Shown: positions 2,540 to 28,991, numbered from the stretch's first letter. The stretch is 37,621 nt of DNA from Chloroflexota bacterium (GCA_022574315.1 JACZSH010000001.1:1-37621), one strand, 5' to 3'. Notes: generated by a model from the letters alone, not told the origin. Numbers and translations: made by a program.

Positions 2540-3798
2540 TTAGGCTTCTCCCCGGGTAATCGGAAAAGTTCCCTCACCATTTCGGCGCTGCCATTGCTGT
2601 CCCCATTTGCTTTCAGGTACCGTACCGGTTCTCGGAGAATCTTGGTGACGATTGATTTGGTCATCGCTTCCAGGGACTTATGGTCCTCTTCGGACAGGGA
2701 ACCGAGTTTCTTCAGCGTCTTGTCCAGTTGTGCGCGGCGTATCTCTTCCGCCTTTTTCATCAGGGCGCTCACCACCGGTCTGACCTCCAGCATCTGCCAC
2801 CAGGCATTAAACTCGGCGATTTCGTTCATTATTATTTCCACGGCTTTCTCAATCTCGCCCTCACGCTGCTGGTGGTTCTGGTCTGAAATCTGGATCAGTC
2901 CGTCGATATTATAGAGGTAAACGTTGTCTATTTCAGCCACCGCCGGCTCGACGTTGCGGGGTACGGCAATGTCGATAATAACCATCGGTGAACCGGAGCG
3001 CAGCTTCATCGCCGCTGCCACGTGGTCGGCGCTGACTATCCAGTGCGGCGCGTCGGCGCAGGTAACGATAATATCACAGGTGTGCATTTCCCCGGCCAGG
3101 TTGCCCAGGCTGATCGGAGTCCCGCCTAACGCCTCGGTCAGCATCGCCGCCCTTTCCTGGGTCCGGCTGGCGATTAATATCGAGGCGACACCTCTGTCTT
3201 TGGCGGCTTTGGCCACCAGCCTGCCCGCTTCACCGGCGCCGATAACCAGCATCCGGCACTTAGCGAGGTCACCGACCACCCGGGTTGCCATATCCACCGC
3301 CACCGAGCTGACGGAAAGGGCGTTTTTGCTGATACCCGTTTCCTCGCGCACCCGCCGGCCGGTCCTGATTGCCCCCTGGAAAAGTTGGCGCAGTGGCAGG
3401 TTGGTCATCTTTATCCTCTCGGCGCTTTCCAGCGCCTGTCCTACCTGCCCCAGCACCTCGTACTCCCCGATAATCATCGAGTCAAGGCCGCAGGTAGTCT
3501 GGAAAAGGTGTGCCACCGCTTCTTTATCTTTGAGGATATAGGTGTACTGGGACAGGTCGGTGTCGGATGTCTCCAGGTGGGTTTTTAAGAAATCAAGGCT
3601 GCCTTCCTCGTTGCGCCTGCCGTCGCCGTCCGTGGTATAGACCTCGGTACGGTTGCAGGTTGACAGTATGATACCGTGGTCGACGTAACGTCCCAGCCTC
3701 GATAGAGAATCGTCGAGCTTTCCCGTCCGGATGGCCGCCTTCTCCCTGATAGCGACCGGTGCTGTCCGGTGATTTATGCCTACTAAACTAAGTTGCAT
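2536..3798 (-). CDS. hemA: Glutamyl-tRNA reductase
   Basis: MQLSLVGINHRTAPVAIRE ... STCNRTEVY (catalytic Cys) ... VIGAGEAG (NADPH fold). I prefer the ATG at 3798, which has a GAGGT 9 nt upstream, over the GTG at 3816 that opens the track ORF. Confidence 0.88.
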   Translation of the reverse strand: MQLSLVGINHRTAPVAIREKAAIRTGKLDDSLSRLGRYVDHGIILSTCNRTEVYTTDGDGRRNEEGSLDFLKTHLETSDTDLSQYTYILKDKEAVAHLFQTTCGLDSMIIGEYEVLGQVGQALESAERIKMTNLPLRQLFQGAIRTGRRVREETGISKNALSVSSVAVDMATRVVGDLAKCRMLVIGAGEAGRLVAKAAKDRGVASILIASRTQERAAMLTEALGGTPISLGNLAGEMHTCDIIVTCADAPHWIVSADHVAAAMKLRSGSPMVIIDIAVPRNVEPAVAEIDNVYLYNIDGLIQISDQNHQQREGEIEKAVEIIMNEIAEFNAWWQMLEVRPVVSALMKKAEEIRRAQLDKTLKKLGSLSEEDHKSLEAMTKSIVTKILREPVRYLKANGDSNGSAEMVRELFRLPGEKPK

Positions 3799-3816
3799 CT
3801 GGTTTTTACCTCGCAC

Positions 3817-4473
3817 TTAATCCGGTGACAGTCCTAAACTGGCCAGCAGGATGCGCCTCGCTTTTTCTCCTTCACCGCTGCGGAGCAGGCCGGTGAGCCG
3901 GTCCAGGTCGAGGGCTTCCTGCCAGGTATCGTTACTGATTTTTGAACCCTGGTGTTTTACCCGGGTGCGTACCTCGTCCAGCAGGAGGGCCAGAGCCGCG
4001 TACTCCTCGCCGAACTCATTTTCCAGTCGGGTCCGGATTTTCCGGGCCAGGGCCGGGCTCCTGCCTGACGTGGAGACGGCAATGGTGACGTCCCCCCGCT
4101 GAAGTAACGAAGGGACGATAAAGTCGCAATTATCGACATCATCCACCACGTTGACCAGCGTTTTTTGGTCTCTCGCTTCTTTTAACAGGTTATGGTTGAC
4201 CTCGCTGTCATCGGTGGCGGCAATGGCGACAAAGGCACCCCGCAGGTCACCCGCCTCATAATTTCTCCAAAATACGCGCACCTGCCCTTCCGCCGCCAGT
4301 TCCGCCAGCGCCGGGCAGAGTTCGGGGCTGATGACGTCAACGCTGGCGCCGTGTTCCAGGAGCGACCTGGCCTTGCGGAACGCCACCGGTCCCCCGCCGA
4401 TGACCACACACCTCTTACCGCTCACTTTCAGTAAAACCGGGTAATAGGCGGCTATCTGGCCCTTTTCTCTCAT
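3817..4473 (-). CDS. sirC: Precorrin-2 dehydrogenase / sirohydrochlorin ferrochelatase (SirC / CysG N-domain type)
   Basis: 218-aa ORF with the Rossmann motif CVVIGGGPVAFRKARSLLEHGASVDVISPE. Size and position between hemA and ahbAB fit. Confidence 0.8.
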   Translation of the reverse strand: MREKGQIAAYYPVLLKVSGKRCVVIGGGPVAFRKARSLLEHGASVDVISPELCPALAELAAEGQVRVFWRNYEAGDLRGAFVAIAATDDSEVNHNLLKEARDQKTLVNVVDDVDNCDFIVPSLLQRGDVTIAVSTSGRSPALARKIRTRLENEFGEEYAALALLLDEVRTRVKHQGSKISNDTWQEALDLDRLTGLLRSGEGEKARRILLASLGLSPD

Positions 4474-5453
4474 ACCGGGTACTTTATCCTCTGCTTCTTG
4501 AATTCTCGGGTGCTGAAAAGCATCACGTAATCGGCCAGGCCGTTAGCCGCGGTGGCCTCAGCCGCTATTTCCCGGCAGGTTTCAATGGCCTGACCGTGAA
4601 TCATGGCGAAAAGGTTGTACTTCCAGAGACGGTTAGTCTCTCGTTCATAGCAATGACTGACTTCCTTCCTTGAGGCCAGGCTTTTACCCACGCTATCGAC
4701 TTTTTCGGCGGGCACTTCCCAGCAGGCCATCCCGTTGGCAGTGAAACCGGCTTTGCGGTGGTTTAGTGAAGCTCCGTAACGCCGTACGATGCCCCGCTCC
4801 ATCAGCGTCCGACTATGCGCCAGAAACTTTTCCGTATTCATGGCGGCCTGCGCTGCCATTTTGCTAAACGGCGACTTTTCTAGCGGCAGGTCTGTCTGCA
4901 GCGCGTTGATTACGTCTTTGTCTCTCCTGGAAAGGGTTGCTTTTTCGGCCAGAGCCGGGTCCGTGTCCCCGTTATCGGCGGTTGACGGCGGGCCGTTTCC
5001 CTCCAGGTTGAAACAGGCGTTTATCTTGAACAGCTTCCGTGCCGGCAGGGCAAAGCAGGCGTCGGCGTCGATTGGGCCGGTCAGTTGCTTCAGTTCCGTC
5101 TCCATATTTGAGGATGGGGGAATAGCCAGGGTGAACCAGAGGTTGAAGTGGTGTTCACGTTCGTAGTTGTGGCTTACCCCGGGATGTTTTGTAATCACCC
5201 GTGCCGCTTCCTCCAGCTTATCCTCCGGAATGCTCATCGCTACCAGCGTCGTCTGGTAACCGAGGCGTCGGGCGTCCATTACCGGGCCAATCAATCGAAT
5301 AATCCGGTTTGCCTTCCACCGGGCGATGCGGTTGATTACCTCGTCCTGGCTGATGTTAAGTTGTGTCCCCAGGGAGGCAAATGGCTCCGCGGTCAGTGGA
5401 AACTGCGATTGTATTCGGTTGATTAACTGCCGGTCGATTCTGTCCAGTTCCAC
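4470..5453 (-). CDS. ahbAB: Siroheme decarboxylase, fused AhbA-AhbB (NirDL/NirGH-like, two Lrp/AsnC-like halves)
   Basis: Two tandem repeats of the motif set D..D..ll..lQ..fPl...PF, then GyqttLvAm and VSHnYeRe..fNlWFtl (second half VSHCYERETNRLWKYNLFAMIH). Confidence 0.8.
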   Translation of the reverse strand: MELDRIDRQLINRIQSQFPLTAEPFASLGTQLNISQDEVINRIARWKANRIIRLIGPVMDARRLGYQTTLVAMSIPEDKLEEAARVITKHPGVSHNYEREHHFNLWFTLAIPPSSNMETELKQLTGPIDADACFALPARKLFKINACFNLEGNGPPSTADNGDTDPALAEKATLSRRDKDVINALQTDLPLEKSPFSKMAAQAAMNTEKFLAHSRTLMERGIVRRYGASLNHRKAGFTANGMACWEVPAEKVDSVGKSLASRKEVSHCYERETNRLWKYNLFAMIHGQAIETCREIAAEATAANGLADYVMLFSTREFKKQRIKYPV

Positions 5454-5454
5454 T

Positions 5455-6585
5455 TTAATTTAGGGCTCCCTGCTTTTTCCGGCGCCATGCCGGTGGTTGA
5501 TATATGCAGTAAGGCTCGGCTTCCAGGTAGTCGCCGGAGGCTTCATAGGCGCGTGCCCGGCAGCCGCCGCAGATTCTTTTATACTCGCAATCGCCGCATT
5601 TCCCCTTGAGTTTGGAGAGGTCCCTCAAGTCGCCGAAGAGCGGCGAATGTTCCCACACCTGTCCGAAAGTCGCCTCCCGGATATTTCCTGCCTCCACGTC
5701 GAAGTAGCCGCAGCCCCGCACGCTGCCCCGGTGATCAATGAAACAGAAACCCGTTCCGGCCAGGCAACCGCGCGTGATGGAGTGCACCGAGCCGTGCCCG
5801 GACACCGGAACGGCGGGGTCGGGCGGCTTTTTCTGTCCGTTCTGCTTCTGTCGCTGCTTCATAATTCTGAGGTAATGAGGCGCGTCGGTCGGCTTGAAGA
5901 ACATCTTGCCTTCCAGTTCCTGTTGCCGGTCGTATATCCAGTTCAGCGTGTCTTCGTATTCCTGTGGGGAAAGTTCCACCGATTCCAACCCCTTGCCCCG
6001 GCCGGTGGGTACCAGCAGGAACGGGTGAAAAGCTACGGCGCCTTTTTCCAGGGCCAGGGAAACAAGGTCATCCAGATAGTTTACATTCAGCTTGGTGATG
6101 GTGCTGTTAATCTGGATATCGATACCCGCCTGCCGGGCGCTGTCGATACCGGCTATGGCCTGTGCAAAGGCGCCGGCCTGGCCCCTAAAATTATCCTGCA
6201 GGTCGGCCGTCGGGAAGTCCAGGCTTATCCCCAATCGGGCTATCGGCACCGCCTTTAAATCGGCGGCGGTATTGTCGTTTATCAGTGTGCCGTTGCTGCC
6301 CATGACCACTCTCATCCCCCGGGAGGTGGCGTACCGGGCTATTTGCAGGGTATCTTGGCGCAGCAGTGGTTCGCCACCGGTCAGGATAAGGATTGGATTG
6401 CCTACCTCCAGTATCTGGTCGATAACTTTGAAGCACTCCCCGGTGGACAGCTCGCCGTCGTATTGCCCGTGGCTTGCCGAACCCCGGCAGTGCGCGCAAT
6501 ACAGATTACAGCTCCGGGTCAGCTCCCAGGCCACCAGCTGCAGTCTGGGTGTGATAATCTCTCTTTTAGCAGTATTATCTGTCAT
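5455..6585 (-). CDS. ahbD: NirJ-like radical SAM/SPASM enzyme of the Ahb pathway, tentatively haem synthase AhbD
   Basis: Cluster motif TRSCNLYCAHC, GGEPLL, and a Cys-rich C-terminus (CGDCEYKRICGGCRARA). The AhbD versus AhbC assignment is from recalled N-terminal patterns only. Confidence 0.65.
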   Translation of the reverse strand: MTDNTAKREIITPRLQLVAWELTRSCNLYCAHCRGSASHGQYDGELSTGECFKVIDQILEVGNPILILTGGEPLLRQDTLQIARYATSRGMRVVMGSNGTLINDNTAADLKAVPIARLGISLDFPTADLQDNFRGQAGAFAQAIAGIDSARQAGIDIQINSTITKLNVNYLDDLVSLALEKGAVAFHPFLLVPTGRGKGLESVELSPQEYEDTLNWIYDRQQELEGKMFFKPTDAPHYLRIMKQRQKQNGQKKPPDPAVPVSGHGSVHSITRGCLAGTGFCFIDHRGSVRGCGYFDVEAGNIREATFGQVWEHSPLFGDLRDLSKLKGKCGDCEYKRICGGCRARAYEASGDYLEAEPYCIYQPPAWRRKKQGALN

Positions 6586-7733
6586 TCGGCGATTCCAATC
6601 TCCTCGTCACTCAGGTAGCACGCCGGGTCTTCGGCCCATACGTCGTTATAAGCCGCTTCCGCCCGTACCCGTAGATTGCCGTTACAGCAGTCGAGGAATC
6701 GGCATTTGGCACACCGCCCTTTGAGCAGCCCCTTGCGGTCTTTCAGGCCGCGGAGGAGCGGCTCCGAGGTATCCGTCCAGATATCCCCGAATTTCCGCTG
6801 CTGTACGTTGCCCAGCGTATGGTGCCACCAGAACTGGTCGGGGTGGACGTTACCCCGGTCGTCAACGGCGCCTATCTTGACGCCGGAATTATTGCCTCCG
6901 TTCATCCTGATGAGTTCGAGGACTCTGGCCGCATGCGGCGGGTCTTTATCTTTCAGTTTGAGGTACAGGTAGACACCGTCTACGTGGCTGCCCACGGTCA
7001 GGATTTCCTTTTGCCGGCCGCGCCGGAAAAGGTCCTCCGTCCGCTCGCTGATCAGGTCCACCACCGCCCTGGTCTGGGAGTGGGAGATGTCGTCCTGCTG
7101 CAGACCGCTGCCTCTCCCTGAATAGGCCAGATGGTAGAAACAGACGCGGTCGATGCCTTCATCCTCTACCAGCTGGAAGATGGCCGGTATCTCCTGGTAG
7201 TTAAAGCGGGTTATGGTCATCCGCAGGGAGACGCGCAAACCCAGGGCGACGCAGTTTCTGATTCCCCTCAGGGCGCTTTCGAAAGCGCCCTCTCGACCTC
7301 GAAAGCGGTCGTTGTTTTCTTTAGTTCCATCCAGGCTTATTCCCACCTCGGCAAAACCGATATCCTGCAGCTCCCTGGCTTCTCTGCCGGAAATCAGGGT
7401 GCCATTGGTGGACAGGGCAACTCTTAAACCCTTTTCGCGAGCAAAGCGCGCCAGTTCGAACAGGTCTTTTCTCATCATCGGCTCGCCGCCGGAAAACAGG
7501 ATTACCGGCACATCAAAGTCGGCCAGGTCGCTGATAAAAGCTTTTCCGGCGGTCGTGTCCATTTCTTCCGCGGATTTCCGGTTGTTGGCGCTGGCATAAC
7601 AGTGGATGCAGCTCAGATTGCACTGCCGGGTGCAGTTCCAGACCACTACCGGTCGTATTATCTCTTTCTTCTCGTAACGCAAATGGTCACCGGGACCGGC
7701 GATGTCACAAAGTAAACGCGTGATTGATATCAT
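6582..7733 (-). CDS. ahbC: NirJ-like radical SAM enzyme of the Ahb pathway, tentatively Fe-coproporphyrin III synthase AhbC
   Basis: TRQCNLSCIHC, GGEPMM, and C-terminal CAKCRFLDCCNGNLRVRA. The N-terminus ITRLLCD..GPGDHLRY is typical of the NirJ/Ahb subgroup. 4-nt overlaps with both neighbours. Confidence 0.65.
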   Translation of the reverse strand: MISITRLLCDIAGPGDHLRYEKKEIIRPVVVWNCTRQCNLSCIHCYASANNRKSAEEMDTTAGKAFISDLADFDVPVILFSGGEPMMRKDLFELARFAREKGLRVALSTNGTLISGREARELQDIGFAEVGISLDGTKENNDRFRGREGAFESALRGIRNCVALGLRVSLRMTITRFNYQEIPAIFQLVEDEGIDRVCFYHLAYSGRGSGLQQDDISHSQTRAVVDLISERTEDLFRRGRQKEILTVGSHVDGVYLYLKLKDKDPPHAARVLELIRMNGGNNSGVKIGAVDDRGNVHPDQFWWHHTLGNVQQRKFGDIWTDTSEPLLRGLKDRKGLLKGRCAKCRFLDCCNGNLRVRAEAAYNDVWAEDPACYLSDEEIGIAE

Positions 7734-8664: not shown

Positions 8665-8693
8665 TTGACAACTTTTCTTATCGATGCTAAACT
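8665..8693 (+). promoter_or_regulatory. Candidate sigma70-type promoter for the Rrf2/sulfur operon (TTGACA-17-TAAACT)
   Basis: TTGACA at 8665-8670, exact 17-nt spacer, TAAACT at 8688-8693, about 40 nt upstream of the preferred TTG start. Confidence 0.45.
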
Positions 8694-8734
8694 GGACTAT
8701 TACCATAAACTTAGTCAACAATGGAGAACAGAAA

Positions 8735-9178
8735 TTGAAACTTTCTACCCGGGGACAGTACGGTACTCGTGCCCTTTTGGACTTGGCGCTGCACAGTGGT
8801 AACGGACCGGTACCTTTAAAAGATATTGCCTCCCGACAGGATATTTCGCTTCACTACCTGGAGCATTTGATTGGTCCTCTGGTAACCGCTGGTATCGTCG
8901 GCAGCACTCGTGGTGCCAAAGGTGGTATTCAACTGAATAAACACCCGCATGAAATAAAACTGAGTGAGGTAGTCCCGCTTCTGGAAGGCTCGCTTGCCCT
9001 GGTCGAATGCCTTAATAACCCGGCAAGCTGCCCGCGCTATGACCAGTGTGTTACTCGTGAAGTCTGGGACCGCATGAAGCAGGCTCTGGATGAGGTTCTT
9101 GAATCGACCACGCTGCAGGATTTGGTCGAGCGCCAGTTGAGTAAAGAGCAGTCGAAAAAGGAAATGTATTACATCTAA
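8735..9178 (+). CDS. Rrf2-family transcriptional regulator (IscR/CymR-like, three-Cys putative Fe-S ligand set)
   Basis: KLSTRGQYGTRALLDLA ... LKDIASRQDISLHYLEHLIGPL ... STRGAKGGIQL; Cys triad in ECLNNPASCPRYDQC. The TTG at 8735 has GGAG 7 nt upstream. The ATG at 8684 of the track ORF lies inside the predicted promoter. Confidence 0.85.
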   Translation: MKLSTRGQYGTRALLDLALHSGNGPVPLKDIASRQDISLHYLEHLIGPLVTAGIVGSTRGAKGGIQLNKHPHEIKLSEVVPLLEGSLALVECLNNPASCPRYDQCVTREVWDRMKQALDEVLESTTLQDLVERQLSKEQSKKEMYYI

Positions 9179-9225
9179 ATATCATCGGCCACTTCGGCTC
9201 AAACCAGCACAAGGAAACCGAGAAT

Positions 9226-10242
9226 ATGATAGACAGGTATTCAAGGCAGGTCCTCTTTCGCGAAATAGGTAAAGAAGGCCAAAAAAAACTGGGCGAAAGC
9301 AGTATCGTCATCATCGGCTGCGGCGCGCTGGGGGGCATAATCGCTACTTCCCTGGTCCGTGCCGGTATCGGTAAAGTAAAGATTATTGACCGGGACTTCG
9401 TTGAATACCATAATCTGCACCGCCAGATTGTCTTCGATGAAGAGGATGTTAAAAGCCAGACGCCCAAGGCCGTCGCCGCCGAGCGCTACCTGAAAAAAGT
9501 GAACTCCACCATTGATATCGAAGGCGTGGTCGCTGACGTGAACTACTCCAACGTTGAAGACCTTGTGCGGGGCGCTGATTTAATCCTGGACGGATTGGAC
9601 AATCCGGAGACCCGCTTTACCCTTAATGACGCTGCCGTAAAACTGAAAATCCCGTGGATTTATGGGGCCGCTGTGGCCGCTTCGGGAATGACCATGAATA
9701 TTATCCCCGGCGAAACTCCCTGCTTCCGCTGTGTCTTCCCCTCTCCCCCGCCGGCCGGTATTATCCCCACCTGTGATACGGCCGGAGTCGTCGGGGCCGC
9801 TCCTTTCATCATCGGCTCCCTGCAGTCCGCGGAAGCCATAAAAATACTGGTCGGCGCCCGGCAAGTAAGCCGTGAAGTCGTCGTTATTGACGTTTGGGAA
9901 GGTACTTTTGACCGCTTTAAAGTTGAATCACGCCCGGACTGCCCCGCCTGCCAGGGTAATTATGAGTTTTTACAGGTGCAGTTAGGCATCAGGACTACCC
10001 TGCTCTGCGGGCAAAATTCCGTGCAGGTCATCGACCCTAAAATGACCGGCTTATCGTTGGAGAAAATGGCTGCGCAGCTTGAACGGCGCGGCAAAGTTAC
10101 CTGTATCGAGTCCACGTTGCACTTTAACGTGGACGCTAATGAAATGGTCATTTTCCCTGACGGACGCGTCATCCTGAAAAACAGCCTCGATGAGTCGCTG
10201 GCCCGGGAACTGTACGTCAGATACATAGATAATCAGCAGTAG
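9226..10242 (+). CDS. ThiF/MoeB/HesA-family E1-like adenylyltransferase with ~90-aa C-terminal extension
   Basis: RYSRQ...IGCGALGG nucleotide loop; two CxxC pairs (CFRC, CPAC) for the structural Zn site; TCDTAGVVG. Confidence 0.85.
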   Translation: MIDRYSRQVLFREIGKEGQKKLGESSIVIIGCGALGGIIATSLVRAGIGKVKIIDRDFVEYHNLHRQIVFDEEDVKSQTPKAVAAERYLKKVNSTIDIEGVVADVNYSNVEDLVRGADLILDGLDNPETRFTLNDAAVKLKIPWIYGAAVAASGMTMNIIPGETPCFRCVFPSPPPAGIIPTCDTAGVVGAAPFIIGSLQSAEAIKILVGARQVSREVVVIDVWEGTFDRFKVESRPDCPACQGNYEFLQVQLGIRTTLLCGQNSVQVIDPKMTGLSLEKMAAQLERRGKVTCIESTLHFNVDANEMVIFPDGRVILKNSLDESLARELYVRYIDNQQ

Positions 10243-10274
10243 TATTTAAGATAGCCTAAAGGAGAGAAGAATAA

Positions 10275-11267
10275 ATGTCGGACAACACCTCAAAAGTGGA
10301 GAAACTAAAATTCCATACCATAGAGATTCCGAAACTGACCAGGGGAATCGCCAAAGACTCCACGGAGCTCATCGGTAATACGCCTCTGGTACAGCTGAAC
10401 CGGATTACGGAAGGAGCGCAGGCTAGAGTTGTCGCCAAGCTGGAATCATTCAATCCCACTAGCAATGTGAAAGACCGCATTGGGGTGGCCATGATTGTCG
10501 ATGCCGAATCGAAAGGACTTATCAATAAAAATACCGTCATCGTCGAACCCACCAGTGGTAATACCGGCATCGCTCTGGCGTTCGTCTGCGCCGCTCGCGG
10601 TTACCGTCTTATCCTTACTATGCCGGACACGATGTCGGTGGAACGCCGCCAGCTGCTCTCCTTCTTCGGCGCCGAGCTGGTGCTGACTCCGGGTGCGGAA
10701 GGGATGCCCGGCGCCATCCGGAAAGCGGAACAGCTGGTTGCGGAAAACCCCGATTATTTCCTGCCGCAGCAGTTTAAGAATCCGTCTAATCCTGAAGTGC
10801 ACCGCGTGACCACTGCTGAGGAAATCTGGAGGGACACGGACGGTCAAGTGGATATCCTGGTCTCCGGCGTTGGTACTGGCGGCACGATTACCGGTGTTTC
10901 TGAGGTAATCAAACCGAGAAAACCGTCTTTTAAGGCTATCGCTGTTGAGCCGGTGGATTCGCCGGTCCTCTCCGGCGGCAAACCCGGCCCCCATAAGATT
11001 CAGGGGATCGGCGCCGGCTTTGTCCCCGACGTATTGAATACCAGTGTCATCGACGAGATTATCAAGGTCACCAATGAAGATGCCGGTGAAATAACACGGA
11101 GACTGGCCAGAGAGGAAGGTATCCTGGCCGGCATTTCTTCCGGAGCCGCCGTCTGGGCGGCCATCGAGGTGGCGAAGAGGCCGGAAAACAAGGGCAAGCT
11201 TATCGTGGTGGTCTTACCGGATACCGGGGAGCGCTACCTGTCTACCTGGCTCTTCCAGTCCACGTAG
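10275..11267 (+). CDS. cysK: Cysteine synthase A (O-acetylserine sulfhydrylase), with ~30-aa N-terminal extension
   Basis: [18 protein letters not shown] (PLP lysine), [33 protein letters not shown] upstream. Confidence 0.9.
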
Positions 11268-11330
11268 CACCGAAGGTAACGTTACCGTAAAGCATAAGTA
11301 TCTGAAAGCTTTTAAGAGAAGGGATTAAAG

Positions 11331-12287
11331 ATGGATCAAGAATTGGGAAAAGAAGCTCGCCGACTGAAAATGGACTTTGCCGAGCTCAAGAGCGGCGGAT
11401 TTATCAAGCAGACCCAGAAAGACCTCTTTACCGTCCGGCTGCGCTGCCCGGCGGGGAAATTAACATCCCGGCAGTTGCATAAAGCCGCCGAGCTTGCTGA
11501 AAAATACGGCCGTGGGGAGTTGCATAATTCCTTTCGGCAGTCAATAGAAATCCCTTATGTTCACCACCAGCACTTTGAGGCTATCGCTGCCGAGCTGAAA
11601 GAAATCGGTTGGTCGATTGCCTCTTGCGGTCCTCGCGTCAGGGTACCCATCGCCTGTGCCGGCTGTACCTGGAACCCCAATGGCCTCATGGATACTCAGA
11701 CCATGTGTCTGGAGGTGGACAAACGCTATTTCGGGACTGCCACCGGCCACCACAAATTTAAAATCTCCTTTTCCGGCTGTCCGATTGATTGTGCCCGGAC
11801 CAGGGAGGCGGATTTGGGTTTTCAGGGAATAGTTGAGCCGGGATTAGTCGAGGAACTGTGTAACGCGTGCGAAATCTGTGTCGTTACCTGCCAGGAAAAT
11901 GCCCTTGTCATGGTTAACGACCTTCCGGTAAGAGACCTGAGCAAATGCAATCACTGCGGCGACTGTATCAAAGTCTGCCCGGTAGATGCCATGATAGCCA
12001 AGAGGAAGGGATGGCTCGGCCGGGTAGGCGGCAAGCACGGGAAACACCCCCTTTACTCCTATGAGATAGCCCAGTTTGTCTCCGACGAACAGTGCTATCC
12101 GCTTATCGAGAAGACCCTGGAATGGTACCAGGCTAACGGTCAGGGCAGGGAGAGAATCGGGGCGGTGATTGCCCGCTTTGGATTACCCCGCTATCTTGAG
12201 GAGGTGGTAAGACCGCTGGGTCTGGAAATAATTGACCGGGCAGAAGATAGAAGAAAGTTCTGGGCGGGAGGCAACGTTTATTCATAG
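11331..12287 (+). CDS. Small siroheme-[4Fe-4S] sulfite reductase of the DsrAB/AsrC-like type with inserted 2x[4Fe-4S] ferredoxin domain
   Basis: Nitrite/sulfite-reductase ferredoxin-like half-domain (RLRCPAGKLTSRQL), sirohaem/cluster Cys motifs (ACAGCTWNP, FSGCPIDCAR) and two CxxCxxCxxxC(P) motifs (CNACEICVVTC, CNHCGDCIKVCP). Confidence 0.7.
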   Translation: MDQELGKEARRLKMDFAELKSGGFIKQTQKDLFTVRLRCPAGKLTSRQLHKAAELAEKYGRGELHNSFRQSIEIPYVHHQHFEAIAAELKEIGWSIASCGPRVRVPIACAGCTWNPNGLMDTQTMCLEVDKRYFGTATGHHKFKISFSGCPIDCARTREADLGFQGIVEPGLVEELCNACEICVVTCQENALVMVNDLPVRDLSKCNHCGDCIKVCPVDAMIAKRKGWLGRVGGKHGKHPLYSYEIAQFVSDEQCYPLIEKTLEWYQANGQGRERIGAVIARFGLPRYLEEVVRPLGLEIIDRAEDRRKFWAGGNVYS

Positions 12288-12339
12288 CCTCACCCGGGGC
12301 GGTAACCCTTGACGTTGATAGAATTGAAGGAGTTGACTT

Positions 12340-13065
12340 ATGGATGACAAAATAGAACACGCCAAAGAACTGGTGGCCGAAGCGATAAGAAATTATCCCC
12401 GGATAGCCGTGGCTTGCTCCTTTGGCAAAGACAGCATGGTGGTCGTTCACATCGCCCGGGAGGTTGACCCGGACATCAAGATATTCGCCGTCATGACTCA
12501 GTACAAACCGGTCGAAACCTACGAATACCTCAAACTGATGAATAAAAAAATGAACCTGAACACCACCGTGTACATGGTGGCGGAAAGTGTTCCGGAAATT
12601 CTTCAGGACGACTCTATTGACATGGTGCTGTTGCCCCCCGGGGAGTTTAATCGGAAGTCCGCTCAGATTGAGGCAGTGTCGGGCAAAAAAATCTACATCT
12701 CGGACCCGGACGAATGCTGCCGATTGCTCAAGGTGGACCCCATCCGGGCTGCCGTCAGCGAGTTGGATGCCTGGATCTGCGGACTGAGAAATACCGAAGG
12801 CCGCACCAGGGTAGATTATCAGGAAGTGGAGCTTAAAGGCGGTCTCTTCAAAGTAAACCCGATTCTCACCTTCACCGAGGCCGAGATATGGCGGTACATG
12901 TCTGCCCACGGTATTGAGCCCCATCCCTGGTACGGATTGGGGTACCGCTCTCTGGGCTGCGCCCCCTGCTCGCATCCCGGCGGAGAGCATGAGCGGGACG
13001 GCCGCTGGCAGAATACCAGTAAATGTGGAGGAGAGTGTGGCATTCACACTCAAAACTTGAAGTGA
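12340..13065 (+). CDS. cysH: Adenylyl-sulfate / phosphoadenylyl-sulfate reductase (thioredoxin-dependent), Fe-S (APS-reductase) type
   Basis: PP-loop CSFGKDSMVV; CC...CxxC cluster ligands (DECCRLLK and GCAPCS); C-terminal catalytic ECGIH motif. Confidence 0.85.
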   Translation: MDDKIEHAKELVAEAIRNYPRIAVACSFGKDSMVVVHIAREVDPDIKIFAVMTQYKPVETYEYLKLMNKKMNLNTTVYMVAESVPEILQDDSIDMVLLPPGEFNRKSAQIEAVSGKKIYISDPDECCRLLKVDPIRAAVSELDAWICGLRNTEGRTRVDYQEVELKGGLFKVNPILTFTEAEIWRYMSAHGIEPHPWYGLGYRSLGCAPCSHPGGEHERDGRWQNTSKCGGECGIHTQNLK

Positions 13066-14276
13066 ACAAAGACAGATTACATAATAATAGACCGTCGGCT
13101 GCCCGGCCGGACCACCGGTTAAGGGTTTACGATGATATCACTCAGCTTATCGCCAGTCCGGAGAACCCGACGCCGCTGGTCAGGTTAAACGTGGTCAACT
13201 CGAATAAATCCTTCCAGATTTACCTCAAGCTGGAAAGATACAATCCCTTCGGTTCCATTAAAGACCGGATTGCTTACCCGATGCTGATGGCGTTATCGAG
13301 AGGCGACCGCACGGTGATTGAGCCTTCCTCGGGCAATACCGGTATTGCTCTTACCTGTGTGGCTAATGCCCTGGGGATACCGGTTGAGATTGTCGTCCCG
13401 GAGAAAATCCCGGAAGAAAAAAAGATAATGCTGAGGTTTTTGGGCGCCAAACTGACCGAGGCCGATGATGCCCTCTGCCCTCTGTATCCCACCGAGGGTG
13501 CCCGGGGTGTCGTCAACGCCCTGATAAAAAGCCCCGCCACGCGGGACAGCTATATCAGCCCCAACCAGTACGAGAATGAGCTTAATGTTCAGGCTCACTA
13601 CCGTACCACCGGGCCGGAAATATGGCAGCAGACACAGGGTAAGCTCAACTATTTCTTTGCCGGCTTTGGCACCTGCGGCACCATCACCGGTGTCGGCCGC
13701 TACCTCAAAGAGCAAAATCCGGCCATCAAGATAATCGGTGTGGAACCGGCCGCCGCCGACCATAAATTACCCGGCATGAAGCGGATTTCTGACCTGAGTG
13801 AAGAATTCGTGCCGACTATTCTGGACCGGTCGGTAATCGACGATACCATTGCGGTCACCGACGAAAGCGCTTACCGCACCGCCCTGGAACTGGCACGGAA
13901 AGAAGGTATTCCCGTCGGGCCCACCACGGGCGCCATCCTTTCCGCCGCCCTCCGCTATACCGGCTCCGCGTCAGGCCTGGCGGTGGTCATCTCTCCGGAC
14001 GACGCCTTCAAATATACCAGCTTCTACAAAGACATCCTGGAAACCAGTACCCGGGTAGTTGAAGAAGAGTATGATTTATGTGACCTGGTCTGTCCCGTTT
14101 CGAAAATGAGGGCGGCCGAAATTATCGATAACCTGGACGAGGGAGAAACCGTCAGTATCATACTGGGTGATACGGAAACACTGAAAAGTGTGGCTCAGGA
14201 GTTAAAAGCCAGGGGTATCAGACCGGAATTTGAGCGCCGGGATGGAAACAAGTTTGTCCTGACGGTTACCCGCTAA
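13062..14276 (+). CDS. CysM/CysK-like PLP-dependent sulfhydrylase fused to a C-terminal TusA/SirA-like sulfur-relay domain
   Basis: NPFGSIKDR (PLP Lys), [21 protein letters not shown]. The last ~75 aa (DLCDLVCPVSKMRAAEIIDNLDEGETVSIILGDTETLKSV) align to the TusA DxxGLxCPxP...GE.L.....D core. The GTG start at 13062 overlaps the cysH TGA (GTGA). The ATG at 13023 would overlap cysH by 43 nt. Confidence 0.78.
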   Translation: MNKDRLHNNRPSAARPDHRLRVYDDITQLIASPENPTPLVRLNVVNSNKSFQIYLKLERYNPFGSIKDRIAYPMLMALSRGDRTVIEPSSGNTGIALTCVANALGIPVEIVVPEKIPEEKKIMLRFLGAKLTEADDALCPLYPTEGARGVVNALIKSPATRDSYISPNQYENELNVQAHYRTTGPEIWQQTQGKLNYFFAGFGTCGTITGVGRYLKEQNPAIKIIGVEPAAADHKLPGMKRISDLSEEFVPTILDRSVIDDTIAVTDESAYRTALELARKEGIPVGPTTGAILSAALRYTGSASGLAVVISPDDAFKYTSFYKDILETSTRVVEEEYDLCDLVCPVSKMRAAEIIDNLDEGETVSIILGDTETLKSVAQELKARGIRPEFERRDGNKFVLTVTR

Positions 14277-14327
14277 TCGCGCTTGATGGATGGCTAAAAG
14301 ACTGGCTTGAAAGGTGGATAACAAACG

Positions 14328-14561
14328 ATGGTTCAACTCGAAAGCCGCCGGAGAAGCATTGTTAAAGCGCTGACGTGGCGAATTTTTGCTACTTTTGTTA
14401 CAATGTCAGTTGTCTACGTCTTTACCCGGGAGCTGGTATTGTCGGCGGGTATCGGCCTTGCCGACACCACCATAAAAATATTCTTTTATTACTCACACGA
14501 AAGGCTCTGGGAAAGAATTCAGTTCGGCCGAAAGAAAGTAAAAGAAGACTATACGATATAA
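14328..14561 (+). CDS. DUF2061-family small membrane protein
   Basis: 77 aa. SIVKALTWRI...FFYYSHERLWERIQFG matches my recollection of the DUF2061 consensus (K.isWR....fyYlHERvW). I recall this family being common next to sulfate-assimilation genes. Confidence 0.6.
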   Translation: MVQLESRRRSIVKALTWRIFATFVTMSVVYVFTRELVLSAGIGLADTTIKIFFYYSHERLWERIQFGRKKVKEDYTI

Positions 14562-14615
14562 TATCCTTCATACATCATTATATCATCGCTTGATTAATCA
14601 GTGAGGAGAGAGAAT

Positions 14616-15758
14616 ATGGAATTTGAGACGCTGGCCATCCACGCCGGGGAAAGGCCGGATAAAACTTATGGCGCCGTCGCCGTGCCCATCTACCAGACGT
14701 CAACTTTTGCCTTCGAAGACATCGGTAAGACCCGCGGTTTTGATTACTCACGTACCGGTAACCCCACCCGGAAGATACTGGAAGATACCATTGCCAGCCT
14801 CGAAGGAGGGAAGGCGGCCTTCGCCTTCGCCACCGGTATGGCCGCGGAAACGACCGTTATTCATCTGCTCAGCGCCGGTGACCACGTCGTCACCGGTGAC
14901 GATATCTACGGCGGCACCTACCGGCTCTTCCAGGACGTGATGACTCGTTTCGGAGTTGAATTTACTTTCGTGCGCATGGACAGCCGCCGCAATATTGAAG
15001 CCGCCATTCGACCTAACACCCGGCTGCTGTGGCTGGAGACGCCCTCTAACCCGCTGCTGAATATCGTTGACCTTGAGATGGCCGTGGACGTAGCTAAAAA
15101 ACATAACCTGTTGACGGCCATTGATAACACCTTTGCCTCTCCCTATTTCTTGAAACCCATTGAATTTGGCATTGACCTCGTCGTCCATTCCACGACCAAG
15201 TACCTCAACGGTCACTGTGATGTACTCGGCGGCGCCGTGGTCACCACCACCGATAACCTGACGGAAAGAGTCCATTTCCTCCTCAATGCGATGGGTACGC
15301 CGGCCTCCCCCTTCGATTCTTGGCTGGTGCTGCGCGGGATTGAAACGCTGCCCATAAGGATGGAACGTCATCAGGCAAATGCCTTTGCCGTGGCTGATTT
15401 CCTGGGCGGACATCCCGCCGTAAAAAAAGTATATTTCCCGGGACTTGAATCACACCCCGGCCACGATATCGCCCGGCGGCAGATGAAAGGGTTCGGCGGT
15501 ATGGTGTCCTTCGAAATAAACGGTGGCGAAAAAGAGACCAATACCTTCCTCAGAAGCATCAAGCTGTTCGTCCTCGCCGAATCACTCGGTGGTGCCGCTT
15601 CTCTCTGTGCCCACCCGGCCACCATGACCCACGCTTCCATGCCGGAAGAGCATCGTCGGAAAGTGGGTATTACCACTGAACTGGTCCGGCTGTCTATAGG
15701 CCTGGAAAACCCCGGGGATTTGATTGAAGACTTAAAACAGGCGCTGGAGTCTAGCTAA
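14616..15758 (+). CDS. Cys/Met-metabolism PLP enzyme (cystathionine gamma-synthase / beta- or gamma-lyase family)
   Basis: YSRTGNPTR, NTFASPY, HSTTKYLNGHCDVLGGAV (PLP Lys), AESLGG. ATG at 14616 is preceded by GAGGAGAG; the track ORF opens at an upstream GTG. Confidence 0.85.
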   Translation: MEFETLAIHAGERPDKTYGAVAVPIYQTSTFAFEDIGKTRGFDYSRTGNPTRKILEDTIASLEGGKAAFAFATGMAAETTVIHLLSAGDHVVTGDDIYGGTYRLFQDVMTRFGVEFTFVRMDSRRNIEAAIRPNTRLLWLETPSNPLLNIVDLEMAVDVAKKHNLLTAIDNTFASPYFLKPIEFGIDLVVHSTTKYLNGHCDVLGGAVVTTTDNLTERVHFLLNAMGTPASPFDSWLVLRGIETLPIRMERHQANAFAVADFLGGHPAVKKVYFPGLESHPGHDIARRQMKGFGGMVSFEINGGEKETNTFLRSIKLFVLAESLGGAASLCAHPATMTHASMPEEHRRKVGITTELVRLSIGLENPGDLIEDLKQALESS

Positions 15759-15768
15759 GGAGCGGGAT

Positions 15769-16992
15769 ATGTCTTATGCCAGAGCTTTACGTTGCCGAAA
15801 ATGCGGGCAGGAATACCCCCTCCAACCCCGTAGCAAATGTGATTTTTGCCTCAGTCCCCTTGAAGTCACTTATGACTACCAGGCCATGGCGGGCGTGGTA
15901 AGTCGTCAGAAAATTGAGTCCGGTTTAAAGAGCATGTGGCGCTATCGTGACCTGCTGCCGACGGAAGAAGCCGAGGTCGACGTGGGCACTGGTTTCACCC
16001 CTTTGATTAAAGCGGACAACCTGGGACGGGAGCTGGGACTGGACCGCCTGTATATCAAGAATGATTGCCTCAATCCCACCTATTCCTTCAAAGACAGGCC
16101 GGTCTCGGTGGCGGCTACCAAGGCGCGGGAATTCGGCTTTGATACCCTGGCCTGCGCCTCCACGGGGAACCTGGCCGCCAGTGTTGCCGCCCATGCTGCC
16201 AAGGCGGGTATGAAAGCCTACGTCTTTGTCCCCTCCAATGTGGAACAGGGCAAGCTGGTCGGCATCGCCATCTATAACCCGGTCCTGGTGCAGGTAGAAG
16301 GCAGCTATGACGATGTGAACCGCCTCTGCTCGGTAGTGGCCCAGAAATATAACTGGGGATTCATCAACGTTAACCTCAGGCCCTATTACGCCGAAGGCAG
16401 CAAGACGCTCGGTTTCGAAGTCGCCGAGCAGCTGGGATGGCGGGCACCCGATTGTGTCATTGCGCCCACTGCCTCGGGACTCATGTTTACCCGTATCTGG
16501 AAAGGGCTGGATGAACTGGCCATGCTCGGCTTGATTGAGCCGATAAATACCCACATGTTCCTGGCTCAGGCGGCGGGTAGTGCCCCCATTGCCAACGCCT
16601 TTGCTGCCGGCACCCTGCACGTGCATCCGGTGAAACCGGACACGATTGCCACTTCCATCGCCATCGGTAACCCGGCGGACGGTTATTACGCGCTCCAGGT
16701 AGCCAGGCAATCCGACGGTGGGGCCTGTACTGTTACCGACGAGGAAACCATCGCGGCCATGAAATTACTCGCCCAGACGGAAGGTATTTTCGCCGAGGCG
16801 GTTGGCGGCGTGGTCATCGGAGCTTTGAAAAAAATGACTGCCGCCGGAATGCTCAAGAAGGACGACCTGACGGTTGCTTTTATCACCGGTGCCGGCCCCA
16901 GAACTCAGGAAATCGTGTCTGACGTGGTACAGCCGCTAACCATAAAAGCGAATATGGAATCCCTTGAAGAGGCGCTTGGCGTGATCGCCTGA
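15769..16992 (+). CDS. Threonine-synthase-family PLP enzyme with N-terminal Zn ribbon (ThrC or a ThrC-like homocysteine/other synthase)
   Basis: CRKCGQEY...CDFC zinc ribbon, NPTYSFKDR (PLP Lys), ACASTGNLAASVAAHA. TAAGGAG RBS. Function is ambiguous given the sulfur context. Confidence 0.8.
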   Translation: MSYARALRCRKCGQEYPLQPRSKCDFCLSPLEVTYDYQAMAGVVSRQKIESGLKSMWRYRDLLPTEEAEVDVGTGFTPLIKADNLGRELGLDRLYIKNDCLNPTYSFKDRPVSVAATKAREFGFDTLACASTGNLAASVAAHAAKAGMKAYVFVPSNVEQGKLVGIAIYNPVLVQVEGSYDDVNRLCSVVAQKYNWGFINVNLRPYYAEGSKTLGFEVAEQLGWRAPDCVIAPTASGLMFTRIWKGLDELAMLGLIEPINTHMFLAQAAGSAPIANAFAAGTLHVHPVKPDTIATSIAIGNPADGYYALQVARQSDGGACTVTDEETIAAMKLLAQTEGIFAEAVGGVVIGALKKMTAAGMLKKDDLTVAFITGAGPRTQEIVSDVVQPLTIKANMESLEEALGVIA

Positions 16993-17049
16993 GATTAACA
17001 GATTATCCTCGACGACGCGTTGTACTATGAAAAGACAGGGAGGGATAAG

Positions 17050-17292
17050 ATGTCCAGAAGGCAGGTAATGTTCACTTTTCCTCAGGAGCTGGTCACGGAG
17101 CCCCTTATCTTTGATTTGGGTCGGCAGTTCAATGTGGTGACCAGTATTCGCCGGGCCGATGTGTCGGAAAATAAGGGCTGGGTTGTTTTGGAATTGGAAG
17201 GAAACGAAGGAGATATCGAGCAGGGTCTGGCCTGGATATCCGGTAAAGGAGTCAGAGTCGACCCGGTTGATGGAGATATCGTCGAAGGCTAG
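17050..17292 (+). CDS. Stand-alone NIL-domain protein
   Basis: 80 aa from the ATG at 17050 (GGGAGGGA RBS). FPQELVTEPLIFDLGRQFNVVTSIRRADVSENKGWVVLELEG...IEQGLAWI is the NIL fold pattern known from the MetN C-terminus. Ends ...DGDIVEG. Confidence 0.7.
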   Translation: MSRRQVMFTFPQELVTEPLIFDLGRQFNVVTSIRRADVSENKGWVVLELEGNEGDIEQGLAWISGKGVRVDPVDGDIVEG

Positions 17293-17405
17293 TCGACTAT
17301 TTCACCCTGCCGTTACGCCTCGGCCGCCTGCTGGCGGCTTCAGCACCTGCTGAGCCGGTCTCCCTGGAACCCGAACCGCCGGAATCCGATGTCGAACTTG
17401 AGCCG

Positions 17406-18144
17406 GTGTTACCGAAACCAGAACCGGAAGATGAAAGGATAACCCTGGCCAGCTTCATCCGTGAAGTTTTCGACGACTGGTTAACCAGGTCGGCCGGGAT
17501 TGTCTTTATCCTCATCGTAGCCCTGGTTATTTTCAATATTTTCTCGGACCTTCCGGAGATGTATCCATTCTTCGGGGTTTTTAATTTCTCAATGGTGCCG
17601 GTACTGTTCATCGTCGGCGGCATCATCTTTATTCTGGCTATCCTGAGGAGTTGAATGATTGCCCATGATAAGACGTCATAGAAGACACCGTGAAAAACTG
17701 CTTTTTCTCATGTTTGCCGGTGCCATCGGCGTCATGTTACTGGTCATCGGGGGTTACCAGCTCATCGAGTTTAGTGACTCCACCGCCTTTTACGGCACTC
17801 TCTGCTTACCCGGACTCTCCGCATTCACGGGTGCTCTGCTCTGAGTGTCATGTCGGCTCCGGGGTAGGTTACCTGGCCAGGTCTAAGCTAAATGGTATTC
17901 CGCAGGTTTTTGCCGTCACCACCCCCACCACCCGCTCCGTCCCCGGCTTCGGTTCCATCCCCGGCTCCGTCTCCCATGCCGGCCCTTGCCCCCTTGCCGG
18001 CAGCTACCCCGCTGGCAATACCCCATGAGCTGGAAGGGCGTGACGACCTGCCTGCTCTGTCATCAGAGCGGTAGCCAGGCGGTTCCCGATGACCGCACCG
18101 GACGGGGCAATGAAACCTGCGCTTCCTGCCATCAACCGGAATAG
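17406..18144 (+). pseudogene. Disrupted multihaem c-type cytochrome gene (NapC/NirT-related membrane-anchored N-terminus plus C-terminal dihaem module), split over five successive +1-shifted frames
   Basis: Fragments: 17406-17654 (two TM segments), 17659-17844 (RRHRRH, TM, STAF.GT), from ~17807 (CSECHVGSG..ARSKLNGIPQVFAV; CSECH at 17837-17851), from ~17925 (Pro/Ala/Ser linker, IPHELEGRDD), and 18025-18144 (CLLCH at 18049-18063, CASCH at 18118-18132). Each piece resumes in the next +1 frame. Confidence 0.55.
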
Positions 18145-18230
18145 CCGGGTGGTTCGGATGCCGTGTGTCCTGGCTTAATTAATAATTTAATGAGAATGGC
18201 ACCGCGGGGGTGGTTTGACGACCAATTATA

Positions 18231-18259
18231 TTGACACCGGGAATACCCTATGGTAGTAT
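18231..18259 (+). promoter_or_regulatory. Near-consensus sigma70 promoter with extended -10 (TTGACA-17-TGgTAGTAT)
   Basis: TTGACA at 18231-18236, 17-nt spacer ending in TGg, TAGTAT at 18254-18259, about 345 nt upstream of ccmE. Confidence 0.5.
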
Positions 18260-18603
18260 GCAGTATAGAAAAACGGGTTCCTCATCGTGGTATTTGTTCC
18301 GGAAGTTGGGCGGTGTGAAGATAGCGGATGAACTTTAATAAGCATTGGCAAGATATTCAAACCTTGTGAAAACGTGATTCACGCCACTGGCGGAATGGGC
18401 TTATGGTTAAGACTATCTCTGATTTGCCTTACACCCGCGCCGGCCGCCGTGTGAAATAGTCGGGTTGCTGGGAGGGTTGCTGCTCTAGTTGCGGCTCTTG
18501 CCAGCGCTCTGGGTAAATAACTGCTCGCGGAATTGGCAAACCAGGCTACAACATCCAGTAACCGTCGTCGATAGCGGACAATAACGCGATTCTGGAGTAA
18601 ATA

Positions 18604-28743: not shown

Positions 28744-28890
28744 CCTGTCTCCACCTCGCTGTTAATTATTTCCCGTTTACGCTGGAACCTGTGATACCAT
28801 AGACATAATGGCTGTTTTCTTAAGTCGGGTAAATGCCCGGCGGCTAATGCTGCCGGCAGGCACCGGTCTCAACGGTAGTCCTACCGCCGA

Positions 28891-28948: not shown

Positions 28949-28991
28949 CTGACACCGGCGGTTTTAATATGTTTGTTGTTCTGATTTTCAA

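Follow-up and report, generated by a model that had tools for sequence, protein, structure and literature searches.

The CysO/CysM/Mec/MoeZ system of Mycobacterium tuberculosis joins a type-II pyridoxal phosphate (PLP) sulfhydrylase to a phosphorylated amino-acid substrate and a protein thiocarboxylate. Krishnamoorthy and Begley reportedly described, in 2011, the HcyS/HcyF/HcyD/MetY/Sir cluster of Wolinella succinogenes, and Hasebe et al. are said to have added, in 2024, a route to homocysteine in Streptomyces albulus that runs through MetM, MetO, MoeZ and Mec; Mec and MoeZ also serve the beta-grasp carrier CysO. In the published MetM pathway, MetM is the homocysteine synthase, a homolog of threonine synthase (ThrC) that uses a thiocarboxylate; MetO is the carrier, MoeZ the ligase and Mec the hydrolase, the last two being listed as the MetO-processing enzymes; and annotations often mistake MetM for threonine synthase (GapMind 2026). 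An S-adenosylmethionine (SAM) riboswitch lies upstream of S. albulus metM (PMC12172450). In the DUF39 pathway, a NIL-ferredoxin protein (MA1822, DvMF_0262) ties the NIL domain genetically to homocysteine synthesis (Rauch 2014; Price 2018, PMC5764234). Here we describe a 37.6-kb stretch of Chloroflexota DNA, called the window throughout, in which a ThrC-like gene is followed by a gene for a stand-alone NIL-domain protein. Judged from its sequence, the ThrC-like protein would be a new member of the already known MetM pathway; what appears to be new is its NIL partner.

The two genes close a block of ten co-directional open reading frames (ORFs) at 8684-17292, with gaps of 10-63 nt. In order, they encode an Rrf2 regulator, a ThiF/MoeB-type adenylyltransferase (E1), CysK, a small siroheme sulfite reductase, an adenosine 5'-phosphosulfate/3'-phosphoadenosine 5'-phosphosulfate (APS/PAPS) reductase, a CysM-like/TusA fusion, a DUF2061 protein, a Cys_Met_Meta_PP enzyme, the ThrC-like protein and the NIL protein. 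The block is best explained, from its gene content, as an operon for sulfate assimilation and for cysteine and methionine synthesis under Rrf2 control. An earlier note on this DNA had pointed out the E1, the ThrC-like gene and the NIL gene, with the E1 at the head of a sulfur operon. All of these ORFs were located where it had placed them, Pfam and NCBIfam confirmed their domains, and the block of sulfur-assimilation and Cys/Met genes does contain the E1. The nearest homologs carry Dehalococcoidia names in databases and the window has matches among metagenome contigs; the host appears to be an uncultured Dehalococcoidia bacterium.

The locus resembles the S. albulus system in having a ThrC paralog of the same clade and signature, a predicted use of O-phosphohomoserine and a thiocarboxylate donor, and an E1, which is needed to charge the carrier. 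It differs in that the window has neither metO nor a SAM riboswitch, having an Rrf2 regulator instead; its E1, unlike MoeZ, is without a rhodanese domain; no Mec/JAMM gene was noticed in the window; and the window has an additional conserved NIL protein, whereas the actinomycete system has none. The Wolinella Hcy cluster likewise combines a rhodanese-less E1 and a sulfite reductase with a PLP homocysteine synthase, an arrangement in which sulfide could charge the adenylated carrier directly. However, its PLP enzyme is MetY, which uses O-acetylhomoserine and is not a ThrC paralog, and it has the ThiS-like carrier HcyS and a JAMM protease, both absent from the window, but no NIL protein. The combination of E1, sulfite reductase and TusA domain with an Rrf2 regulator in place of the riboswitch appears not to have been described previously. 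The MetM/MetO route was first described in 2024. Genes for MetM still carry the annotation threonine synthase, and metabolic reconstructions of the abundant uncultured Chloroflexota are distorted by this.

The ThrC-like protein groups with a MetM proxy

S. albulus MetM and MetO were represented by proxy, through a Nonomuraea gerenzanensis locus found by tblastn in PLSDB (the record is an 11.85-Mb chromosome filed as a plasmid). This locus consists of a SAM riboswitch (RF00162, 68.7 bits), a ThrC homolog and a 91-aa ORF of the Pfam ThiS family ending in ...IIPAVAGG, in that order; the literature gives the same architecture for S. albulus metM-metO. The window's ThrC-like protein was 51.6% identical to the Nonomuraea homolog over 98% of its length, whereas annotated thrC genes in the same tblastn search reached only 32-39%. 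Identity to solved ThrCs and to an operon-defined ThrC was 28-39%.

We built a neighbor-joining tree (100 bootstraps) from the window protein, 21 relatives, the Nonomuraea protein, five solved ThrCs and the Priestia thrC product of a hom-thrC-thrB operon. The window protein, its relatives and the Nonomuraea protein formed a monophyletic MetM-like clade, apart from the ThrCs, in 84 of the 100 bootstraps. Members of this clade share a signature (STGNL, N[IV]NxRP[YF]YAEGSK, ASG and GNPADG) that differs from the threonine synthase residues at matching positions (STGNT, NPYRxEGQK and GNAGN). The window protein itself has STGNL, NLRPYYAEGSK and TASGL, and lacks the motifs of authentic ThrCs. Its PALP and TIGR00260 matches, and an S-F-K-D-R motif that aligns with the PLP-lysine motif of the solved ThrCs, place it among the fold-type II PLP enzymes of the ThrC family, and it clears the NF006050 model narrowly (304.5 against a cut-off of 303). 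One related locus, L048, has a second and more ThrC-like paralog 8 kb away from its MetM-like gene.

The assignment of the window gene to the MetM clade, and not to canonical threonine synthases, is thus supported by sequence comparison, and its product is predicted to be an O-phosphohomoserine-dependent homocysteine synthase. The earlier note had suspected a MetM-like enzyme rather than ThrC and had suggested a phylogeny; the suspicion is borne out by the separation of the clades, the 52% identity to a riboswitch-linked gene and the distinct motifs.

A stand-alone NIL gene accompanies MetM-like genes

Relatives of the locus were found by a NIL-alignment scan of a collection with one genome per species, and nearly all of the loci came from Dehalococcoidia or Chloroflexota. 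The counts below refer to the best 80 of at least 591 confirmed relatives. Synteny was read by seed and hidden Markov model (HMM) searches, and denominators are 73 (loci with enough flank), 77 or 80; individual loci are designated by L numbers.

A MetM-like gene lay directly 5' of NIL in 68 of the 73 loci with enough flank. Two main arrangements followed. In type A (23/77 loci) a ThiS-family protein is encoded within 1.3 kb after NIL; it shares 46-55% identity with the MetO-like protein of Nonomuraea, and its sequence ends in VPAVAGG plus 0-6 extra residues. In this respect these relatives match the S. albulus system, with a MetO-like ThiS in the operon that often has residues past the GG in need of trimming. 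In type B (34/77 loci), to whose subclade the window's MetM belongs, NIL is followed by a gene for the cysteine desulfurase NifS. Contigs of Dormibacteraeota type have the order MetM-like, ThiS, NIL; the NIL query sequence ending in E proved to be of this Dormibacteraeota/Chloroflexi type, and not actinobacterial as first guessed.

Fusions were found among cluster representatives: ThiS/MoaD-NIL (one beside a TusA gene), Prok-JAB(JAMM)-NIL (beside ThiS and PAPS reductase genes) and NIL-NIL. A PALP-NIL fusion followed by ThiS (P0256, L095) lies in an error-prone-looking long-read contig and may be an assembly artifact, since only 57 nt, in frame, separate MetM from NIL. In the window, too, the two genes share a reading frame at this distance, and the loss of one stop codon would fuse them (15769-17292).

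Full-text literature searches returned no paper linking a stand-alone NIL protein to MetM. On this comparative evidence, NIL is probably a conserved partner of MetM-like genes and a seemingly undescribed third component of the MetM pathway, not its sulfur carrier. The pathway would then have a conserved extra part in Chloroflexota and in contigs labeled Dormibacteraeota/Chloroflexota. One premise of the earlier note fell away here. It had described MetO as a NIL-domain protein, but the Nonomuraea proxy for MetO is a 91-aa ThiS-family protein ending in ...PAVAGG, and no NIL homolog was found in that genome: tblastn with the window NIL against PLSDB, which includes the Nonomuraea genome, gave no match. 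Nor does NIL simply stand in for MetO, since 23 of 77 loci have MetM, NIL and a MetO-like gene together and Dormibacteraeota-type contigs have MetM, ThiS and NIL.

Other genes recur 3' of NIL. A PurM-superfamily (AIRS) protein is encoded within about 4 kb in 34 of 80 genome loci (e.g., L015 11426-12478). In most of these it comes after NifS or NifS-NifU, and in a few NIL is its immediate neighbor. The protein shows weak similarity to HypE, ThiL and SelD, under all cut-offs. L066 has, at 11940-13710, genes for a Thi4-family sulfide-dependent thiazole synthase, a DUF6775 protein (a probable metallopeptidase) and ThiS. A Thi4/DUF6775-type module also lies a few kb 3' of NIL in L013, L011 and L034, and L013 has a ThiS gene at the position matching the L066 module.

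The NIL protein has a predicted ACT-like fold and a conserved acidic tail

The NIL gene begins 57 nt past the stop codon of the ThrC-like gene and its product ends in ...VDGDIVEG, as the earlier note had described (80 aa, ...VEG). The AlphaFold2 model (mean predicted local distance difference test, pLDDT, 88.6) has a beta-alpha-beta-beta-alpha-beta fold up to residue 72 and no secondary structure thereafter; the last 10-residue block has a mean pLDDT of 61, and residues 77-80 fall below 50. In Foldseek searches the best matches to the model were methionine-binding C2 domains of MetN (template-modeling score, TM, about 0.8; E = 5e-7), followed by ACT domains. The fold is therefore ACT/ferredoxin-like and not beta-grasp, the sole Pfam match is NIL, and the protein does not belong to the ThiS family. 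As it has no cysteine, it cannot carry a persulfide.

The window NIL thus shares its fold with the NIL (C2) domain of MetN, but it stands alone, ends in an additional acidic tail (8 residues, conserved) and has its gene beside that of a biosynthetic enzyme rather than a transporter. It also differs from the NIL protein of the DUF39 system, which is fused to ferredoxin and whose partner DUF39 uses aspartate semialdehyde, whereas the window protein is unfused and has a ThrC-family partner. The Asn of the N-I-L motif, which we take to correspond to N295 of E. coli MetN, a residue on which methionine trans-inhibition depends, is kept as TNIRRA in at least 90% of aligned NIL homologs and is Ser in the window protein. 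Because of its fold and the recurring tie of NIL domains to methionine or homocysteine systems (MetN; DUF39/NIL-ferredoxin), the window NIL is probably a methionine- or homocysteine-binding module. NIL domains have now turned up in three unrelated methionine/homocysteine systems (the MetN importer, DUF39/NIL-ferredoxin and MetM), which gives a testable lead on their role: NIL may bind methionine or homocysteine, or handle the carrier.

The earlier note had proposed that the C-terminal Gly be checked for conservation. A final G is present in 118 of the 120 closest database homologs and the sequence ends in EG in 78 of 84 loci, so that a flexible tail with a conserved terminal glycine, as expected of a carrier, is present. 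However, L063 and L069 have S at the end, L043 has V and L074, one of the loci with the E1, has A, and the Dormibacteraeota-type NIL ends in ...GDLVE, with the final glycine absent. Termini among the orthologs are therefore EG, ES, EA, EV, QG or E, and that of the window protein is Glu-Gly, not the Gly-Gly of a carrier. Since the last residue varies, what is conserved is an acidic GD[IV][VI]E tail rather than a Gly-Gly carboxylate at the end. No difference in the tail was seen between loci that have a MetO-like gene and loci that do not, nor between types A and B.

The E1 and the search for a ThiS-type carrier

Residues 4-245 of the E1 align to E. coli ThiF, with GCGALG, the cysteine pairs CFRC and CPAC and the cysteine of TCDTAGV, which makes it a member of the ThiF/MoeB family. 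It matches NCBIfam PRK12475 over its full length (335 bits). Pfam and NCBIfam searches gave no rhodanese match, and the C-terminal 95 aa match only the PRK12475-type extension, so the protein is not of MoeZ type.

No carrier gene was found near it. Among ORFs of 40-150 aa in the whole window, none but a spurious 42-aa ORF ends in GG, and a ThiS/MetO-like HMM built from 30 relatives came up empty on the window translated in six frames (best E = 4.3). A metO gene is absent next to MetM, as it is across the whole window. The statement in the earlier note that no ThiS/MoaD-like ORF ending in GG fits into the gaps of the block can thus be extended to every frame of the 37.6 kb by ORF scan and HMM. 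In related loci, an E1 of the window type occupies the same operon position in 14 of 80 cases, all without an adjacent MetO-like gene, and only 3 of these 14 have any ThiS-like gene within 10 kb. In one, L017, a ThiS-family gene lies ~260 nt 3' of the E1, with only a 68-aa ORF, a cysteine-desulfurase remnant, in between; in L066 the ThiS gene belongs to the Thi4-DUF6775-ThiS module, as that of L013 probably does too.

The C-terminal domain of the E1 was considered as a fused ThiS-like carrier and rejected: two orthologs end in GG, but the terminus is variable (DNQQ, GT, GN) and the domain has no PDB or Pfam match. The two orthologs (L015 716-1726, ending in ...YIGG, and L042 819-1832, ending in ...YLGG; the window E1 ends in ...YIDNQQ) also lack the active-site cysteine, with TAETVGV and TTENVGL in place of TCDTAGV. 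Elsewhere, 90-aa ThiS-family proteins encoded just 3' of a 248-aa E1 (L003 13814-14086; L009 9154-9426) end in ...FVAEG and not in GG, and their ortholog in L058 ends in ...FVTGG.

A model for the operon and its alternatives

The roles that we assign to the genes of the operon are based on homology, synteny and predicted fold, from which each functional step is inferred. At a probability of roughly one half, we favor a reading in which MetM works with NIL as an accessory and the E1 charges a ThiS-family carrier encoded elsewhere. The APS/PAPS reductase and the small siroheme sulfite reductase would together make sulfide, by way of sulfite derived from sulfate, and CysK and the CysM-like/TusA enzyme would form cysteine. 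MetM would turn O-phosphohomoserine into homocysteine, drawing the sulfur from a protein thiocarboxylate, as in Streptomyces, and the enzyme of the cystathionine gamma-synthase/lyase family would link cysteine and homocysteine by transsulfuration. The E1 would adenylate a MetO-like carrier of the ThiS family encoded outside the window. Sulfur for this carrier might come as sulfide from the sulfite reductase or as persulfide from the TusA domain, in which case the E1 would need no rhodanese domain. NIL would not be the sulfur donor but a third part conserved in the MetM systems of Chloroflexota and Dormibacteraeota: an ACT-like module that most likely binds methionine, homocysteine or the homocysteine-carrying end of the carrier, and that, as a subunit of MetM, would regulate it or handle its product or carrier. 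Its acidic tail GD[IV]VE(G) would be a docking peptide.

That NIL would be a partner of MetM and not a replacement for the carrier is suggested by the MetM-like gene directly 5' of it in 68 of 73 loci, by its co-occurrence with MetO-like ThiS proteins, by a tail that is the same with or without MetO, and by the fusions. An E1 working with a ThiS-type carrier has some precedent among the relatives, where L017 has the two genes ~260 nt apart and L013 and L066 have ThiS in the locus. Several observations weigh on the other side. The assignment of MetM passes through the Nonomuraea proxy and not through S. albulus sequences; ORF scan and HMM found no ThiS-like gene in the window; and 11 of the 14 loci with a window-type E1 have no detectable ThiS-like gene within 10 kb. 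The compact operon of L034 (Rrf2-E1-Sir-CysM/TusA-NIL) puts NIL at the position expected of the carrier. Loci that contain MetO almost never have an E1 nearby, and the E1 loci are without MetO, a near-exclusion that would also be expected if, in the window's clade, NIL had become the carrier. Finally, the ThiS-family proteins beside another E1 in L003 and L009 end in ...AEG, and an E-G terminus may thus be acceptable to the E1 of this lineage.

A protein thiocarboxylate might be dispensable in this clade altogether. MetM would then take sulfide or persulfide directly, the E1 would serve thiamine, molybdopterin or tRNA thiolation and merely be co-regulated, and NIL would still be an accessory of MetM. 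We consider this improbable. The operon makes its own sulfide, and the NifS/NifU genes that follow NIL in relatives are Fe-S machinery typical of an Rrf2/IscR regulon, not a carrier module. In the same direction, the ThiS genes near the window-type E1 of L066 and, probably, of L013 lie in a thiazole module, and at conserved positions most type-B MetMs have GS and ASGL where those linked to MetO have GC and ASGS. However, 14 species-level genomes have the E1 as the second gene of a Cys/Met operon, as would be expected if it worked in that pathway, and in L017 both E1 and ThiS-like gene are within the Cys/Met operon. Moreover, the published MetM uses a thiocarboxylate (GapMind 2026).

More doubtful still is the proposal, made in the earlier note, that NIL itself is the sulfur carrier in the MetO-less clade that includes the window. 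The E1 would adenylate its C-terminal glycine, sulfide or a persulfide would convert this to a thiocarboxylate, and MetM, perhaps also the CysM-like/TusA enzyme, would use it. If this were true, NIL would be the first carrier of a protein thiocarboxylate to fall outside the ubiquitin-like proteins, and such chemistry would extend beyond the ubiquitin fold. ThiF-family enzymes such as MccB do adenylate substrates that are not beta-grasp proteins. The tail of NIL is predicted to be disordered and its terminal Gly is kept in 118 of 120 close homologs; 14 loci have an E1 in the operon together with NIL, 11 of them without a ThiS-like gene within 10 kb; and loci with an adjacent MetO and loci with an E1 are nearly mutually exclusive. 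The E1-Sir-CysM/TusA-NIL order of L034 recalls cysM-cysO logic, and ThiS-like proteins ending in AEG stand beside an E1 in L003 and L009. The likeness to CysO/CysM has limits: the CysM-like/TusA-then-NIL order of L034 and L046 mimics the cysM-cysO order, but the window's CysM-like protein is nearer to CysK-type PDB enzymes and is fused to TusA, and the neighboring NIL is not a beta-grasp protein. Against a carrier role, NIL with the same tail co-occurs with MetO orthologs in 23 of 77 loci and in Dormibacteraeota-type contigs. In some loci NIL ends otherwise, with S (L063, L069), V (L043) or A (L074, a locus with the E1), the E-ending type lacks the residue altogether, and the fold of NIL is ACT-like. 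To our knowledge, every known thiocarboxylate carrier ends in Gly-Gly, whereas NIL ends in Glu-Gly. The E1, moreover, is of PRK12475 type over its full length, C-terminal domain included; these are presumably the MoeB/ThiF-type E1s of Bacillus, which would serve ThiS or MoaD. Of what the earlier note had put forward, the MetM type, the sulfur operon with its E1 and the lack of a ThiS-like gene have stood, and NIL as the carrier is improbable.

Lastly, it is highly improbable that the ThrC-like gene is an ordinary threonine synthase gene placed by chance in a sulfur operon with an unrelated NIL: it passes TIGR00260 (269 bits) and, barely, NF006050, and its relatives are named threonine synthase in databases, but it clades with a riboswitch-controlled actinomycete MetM-like gene apart from the five solved and the operon-defined ThrCs, has active-site motifs unlike those of ThrC, is paired with NIL in 68 of 73 loci among Cys/Met genes and has a relative, L048, with a more ThrC-like paralog 8 kb away, and MetM is a frequent victim of this very misannotation (GapMind 2026).

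Features of the operon

The coordinates of the features are collected in Table 1, with the domain or family evidence for each.

Table 1. Features of the sulfur operon in the 37.6-kb window, in order of position.
Feature	Coordinates	Strand	Evidence
Rrf2-family regulator (CymR/IscR-like), first gene of the block	8684..9178	+	Pfam Rrf2, 138.7 bits; domain from residue 20
ThiF/MoeB-type E1 adenylyltransferase, 338 aa, C-terminal domain of ~95 aa, no rhodanese domain	9226..10242	+	Pfam ThiF, 249 bits
CysK, cysteine synthase A	10275..11267	+	TIGR01139 cysK, 486 bits (cut-off 351)
Small siroheme sulfite reductase with inserted 2x[4Fe-4S] ferredoxin domain	11331..12287	+	Pfam NIR_SIR, NIR_SIR_ferr, Fer4
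APS/PAPS reductase (CysH)	12340..13065	+	NF002537, 179 bits (cut-off 154)
CysK/CysM/CBS-family PLP enzyme with C-terminal TusA sulfurtransferase domain	13023..14276	+	Pfam PALP, 232 bits; TusA, 32.3 bits, residues 349-416
DUF2061 small membrane protein	14328..14561	+	Pfam DUF2061, 65.9 bits
Cystathionine gamma-synthase/gamma-lyase family enzyme (transsulfuration)	14601..15758	+	Pfam Cys_Met_Meta_PP, 523 bits
MetM-type ThrC paralog (predicted), 407 aa, N-terminal zinc ribbon (CxxC...CxxC)	15769..16992	+	PALP, 238 bits; TIGR00260 thrC, 269 bits
Stand-alone NIL-domain protein, 80 aa, no cysteine	17050..17292	+	Pfam PF09383 NIL, 50.9 bits (cut-off 24)
NIL C-terminal tail VDGDIVEG, conserved, predicted disordered	17266..17289	+	Family consensus GD[IV][VI]E, then G

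Against NCBIfam, the Rrf2 protein scored 135.7 bits with CymR and 116 bits with IscR, each under its cut-off. The homologous operon begins with an Rrf2 gene in most type-B loci as well. A promoter-like site at 8665-8693 (TTGACA, a 17-nt spacer and TAAACT, with TG) overlaps the listed start of the Rrf2 gene. Because of this overlap, and because the domain begins some 17 codons in, the true start probably lies ~17 codons 3' of the listed ATG. Scans for terminators and promoters gave results at chance level and did not define the ends of the operon. An Rfam search of the window found no family, hence no SAM riboswitch.

The best PDB match of the sulfite reductase was the C-terminal sulfite-reductase half of the F420-dependent sulfite reductase Fsr (7npa, E = 5e-38). 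For the CysM-like/TusA fusion the best PDB matches were O-acetylserine sulfhydrylases; its TusA domain has a Cys within the motif CPVS. As listed, this ORF overlaps cysH by 43 nt, and its true start may be later. In L034 and L046 the gene for the fusion is directly 5' of NIL, without a MetM gene. The DUF2061 gene adjoins a PAPS reductase gene in L034 too. The Cys_Met_Meta_PP enzyme scored slightly under the cut-offs of several NCBIfam equivalogs, and its gene is immediately 5' of the MetM-like gene in most type-B loci. In a metagenome variant, the ENA scaffold L088 with an identical MetM protein, DUF2061 and MetM are not separated by a Cys_Met_Meta_PP gene; on the opposite strand a 146-aa ORF is called.

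Surroundings of the operon

A cluster for siroheme and alternative heme biosynthesis occupies the minus strand at 100-7733, with genes for a HemD/uroporphyrinogen methyltransferase fusion, HemC, HemA, a SirC-like protein, a NirDL/AhbAB-like siroheme decarboxylase and two radical SAM proteins (AhbC/AhbD-like). Such a cluster is in keeping with the siroheme requirement of the operon's sulfite reductase.

Cytochrome c maturation genes lie 3' of the block. Between NIL and ccmE (17297-18600) there are only short ORFs, in differing frames, two of which bear CxxCH heme-binding motifs (CSECH, CLLCH, CASCH); the region may be a frameshifted or miscalled NrfH/NapC-like multiheme cytochrome gene. The ORF with CLLCH and CASCH lies at 17986-18144; a Pfam scan of the ORFs at 17406-17654 and 17690-18028 was empty. 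Further on, 27376-36384 holds two genes of MtmB-family methyltransferases, a corrinoid-binding protein gene and three class-III aminotransferase paralogs, and two short ORFs, at 27902-28042 (plus strand) and 31873-32013 (minus strand), have near-identical C-terminal ends.

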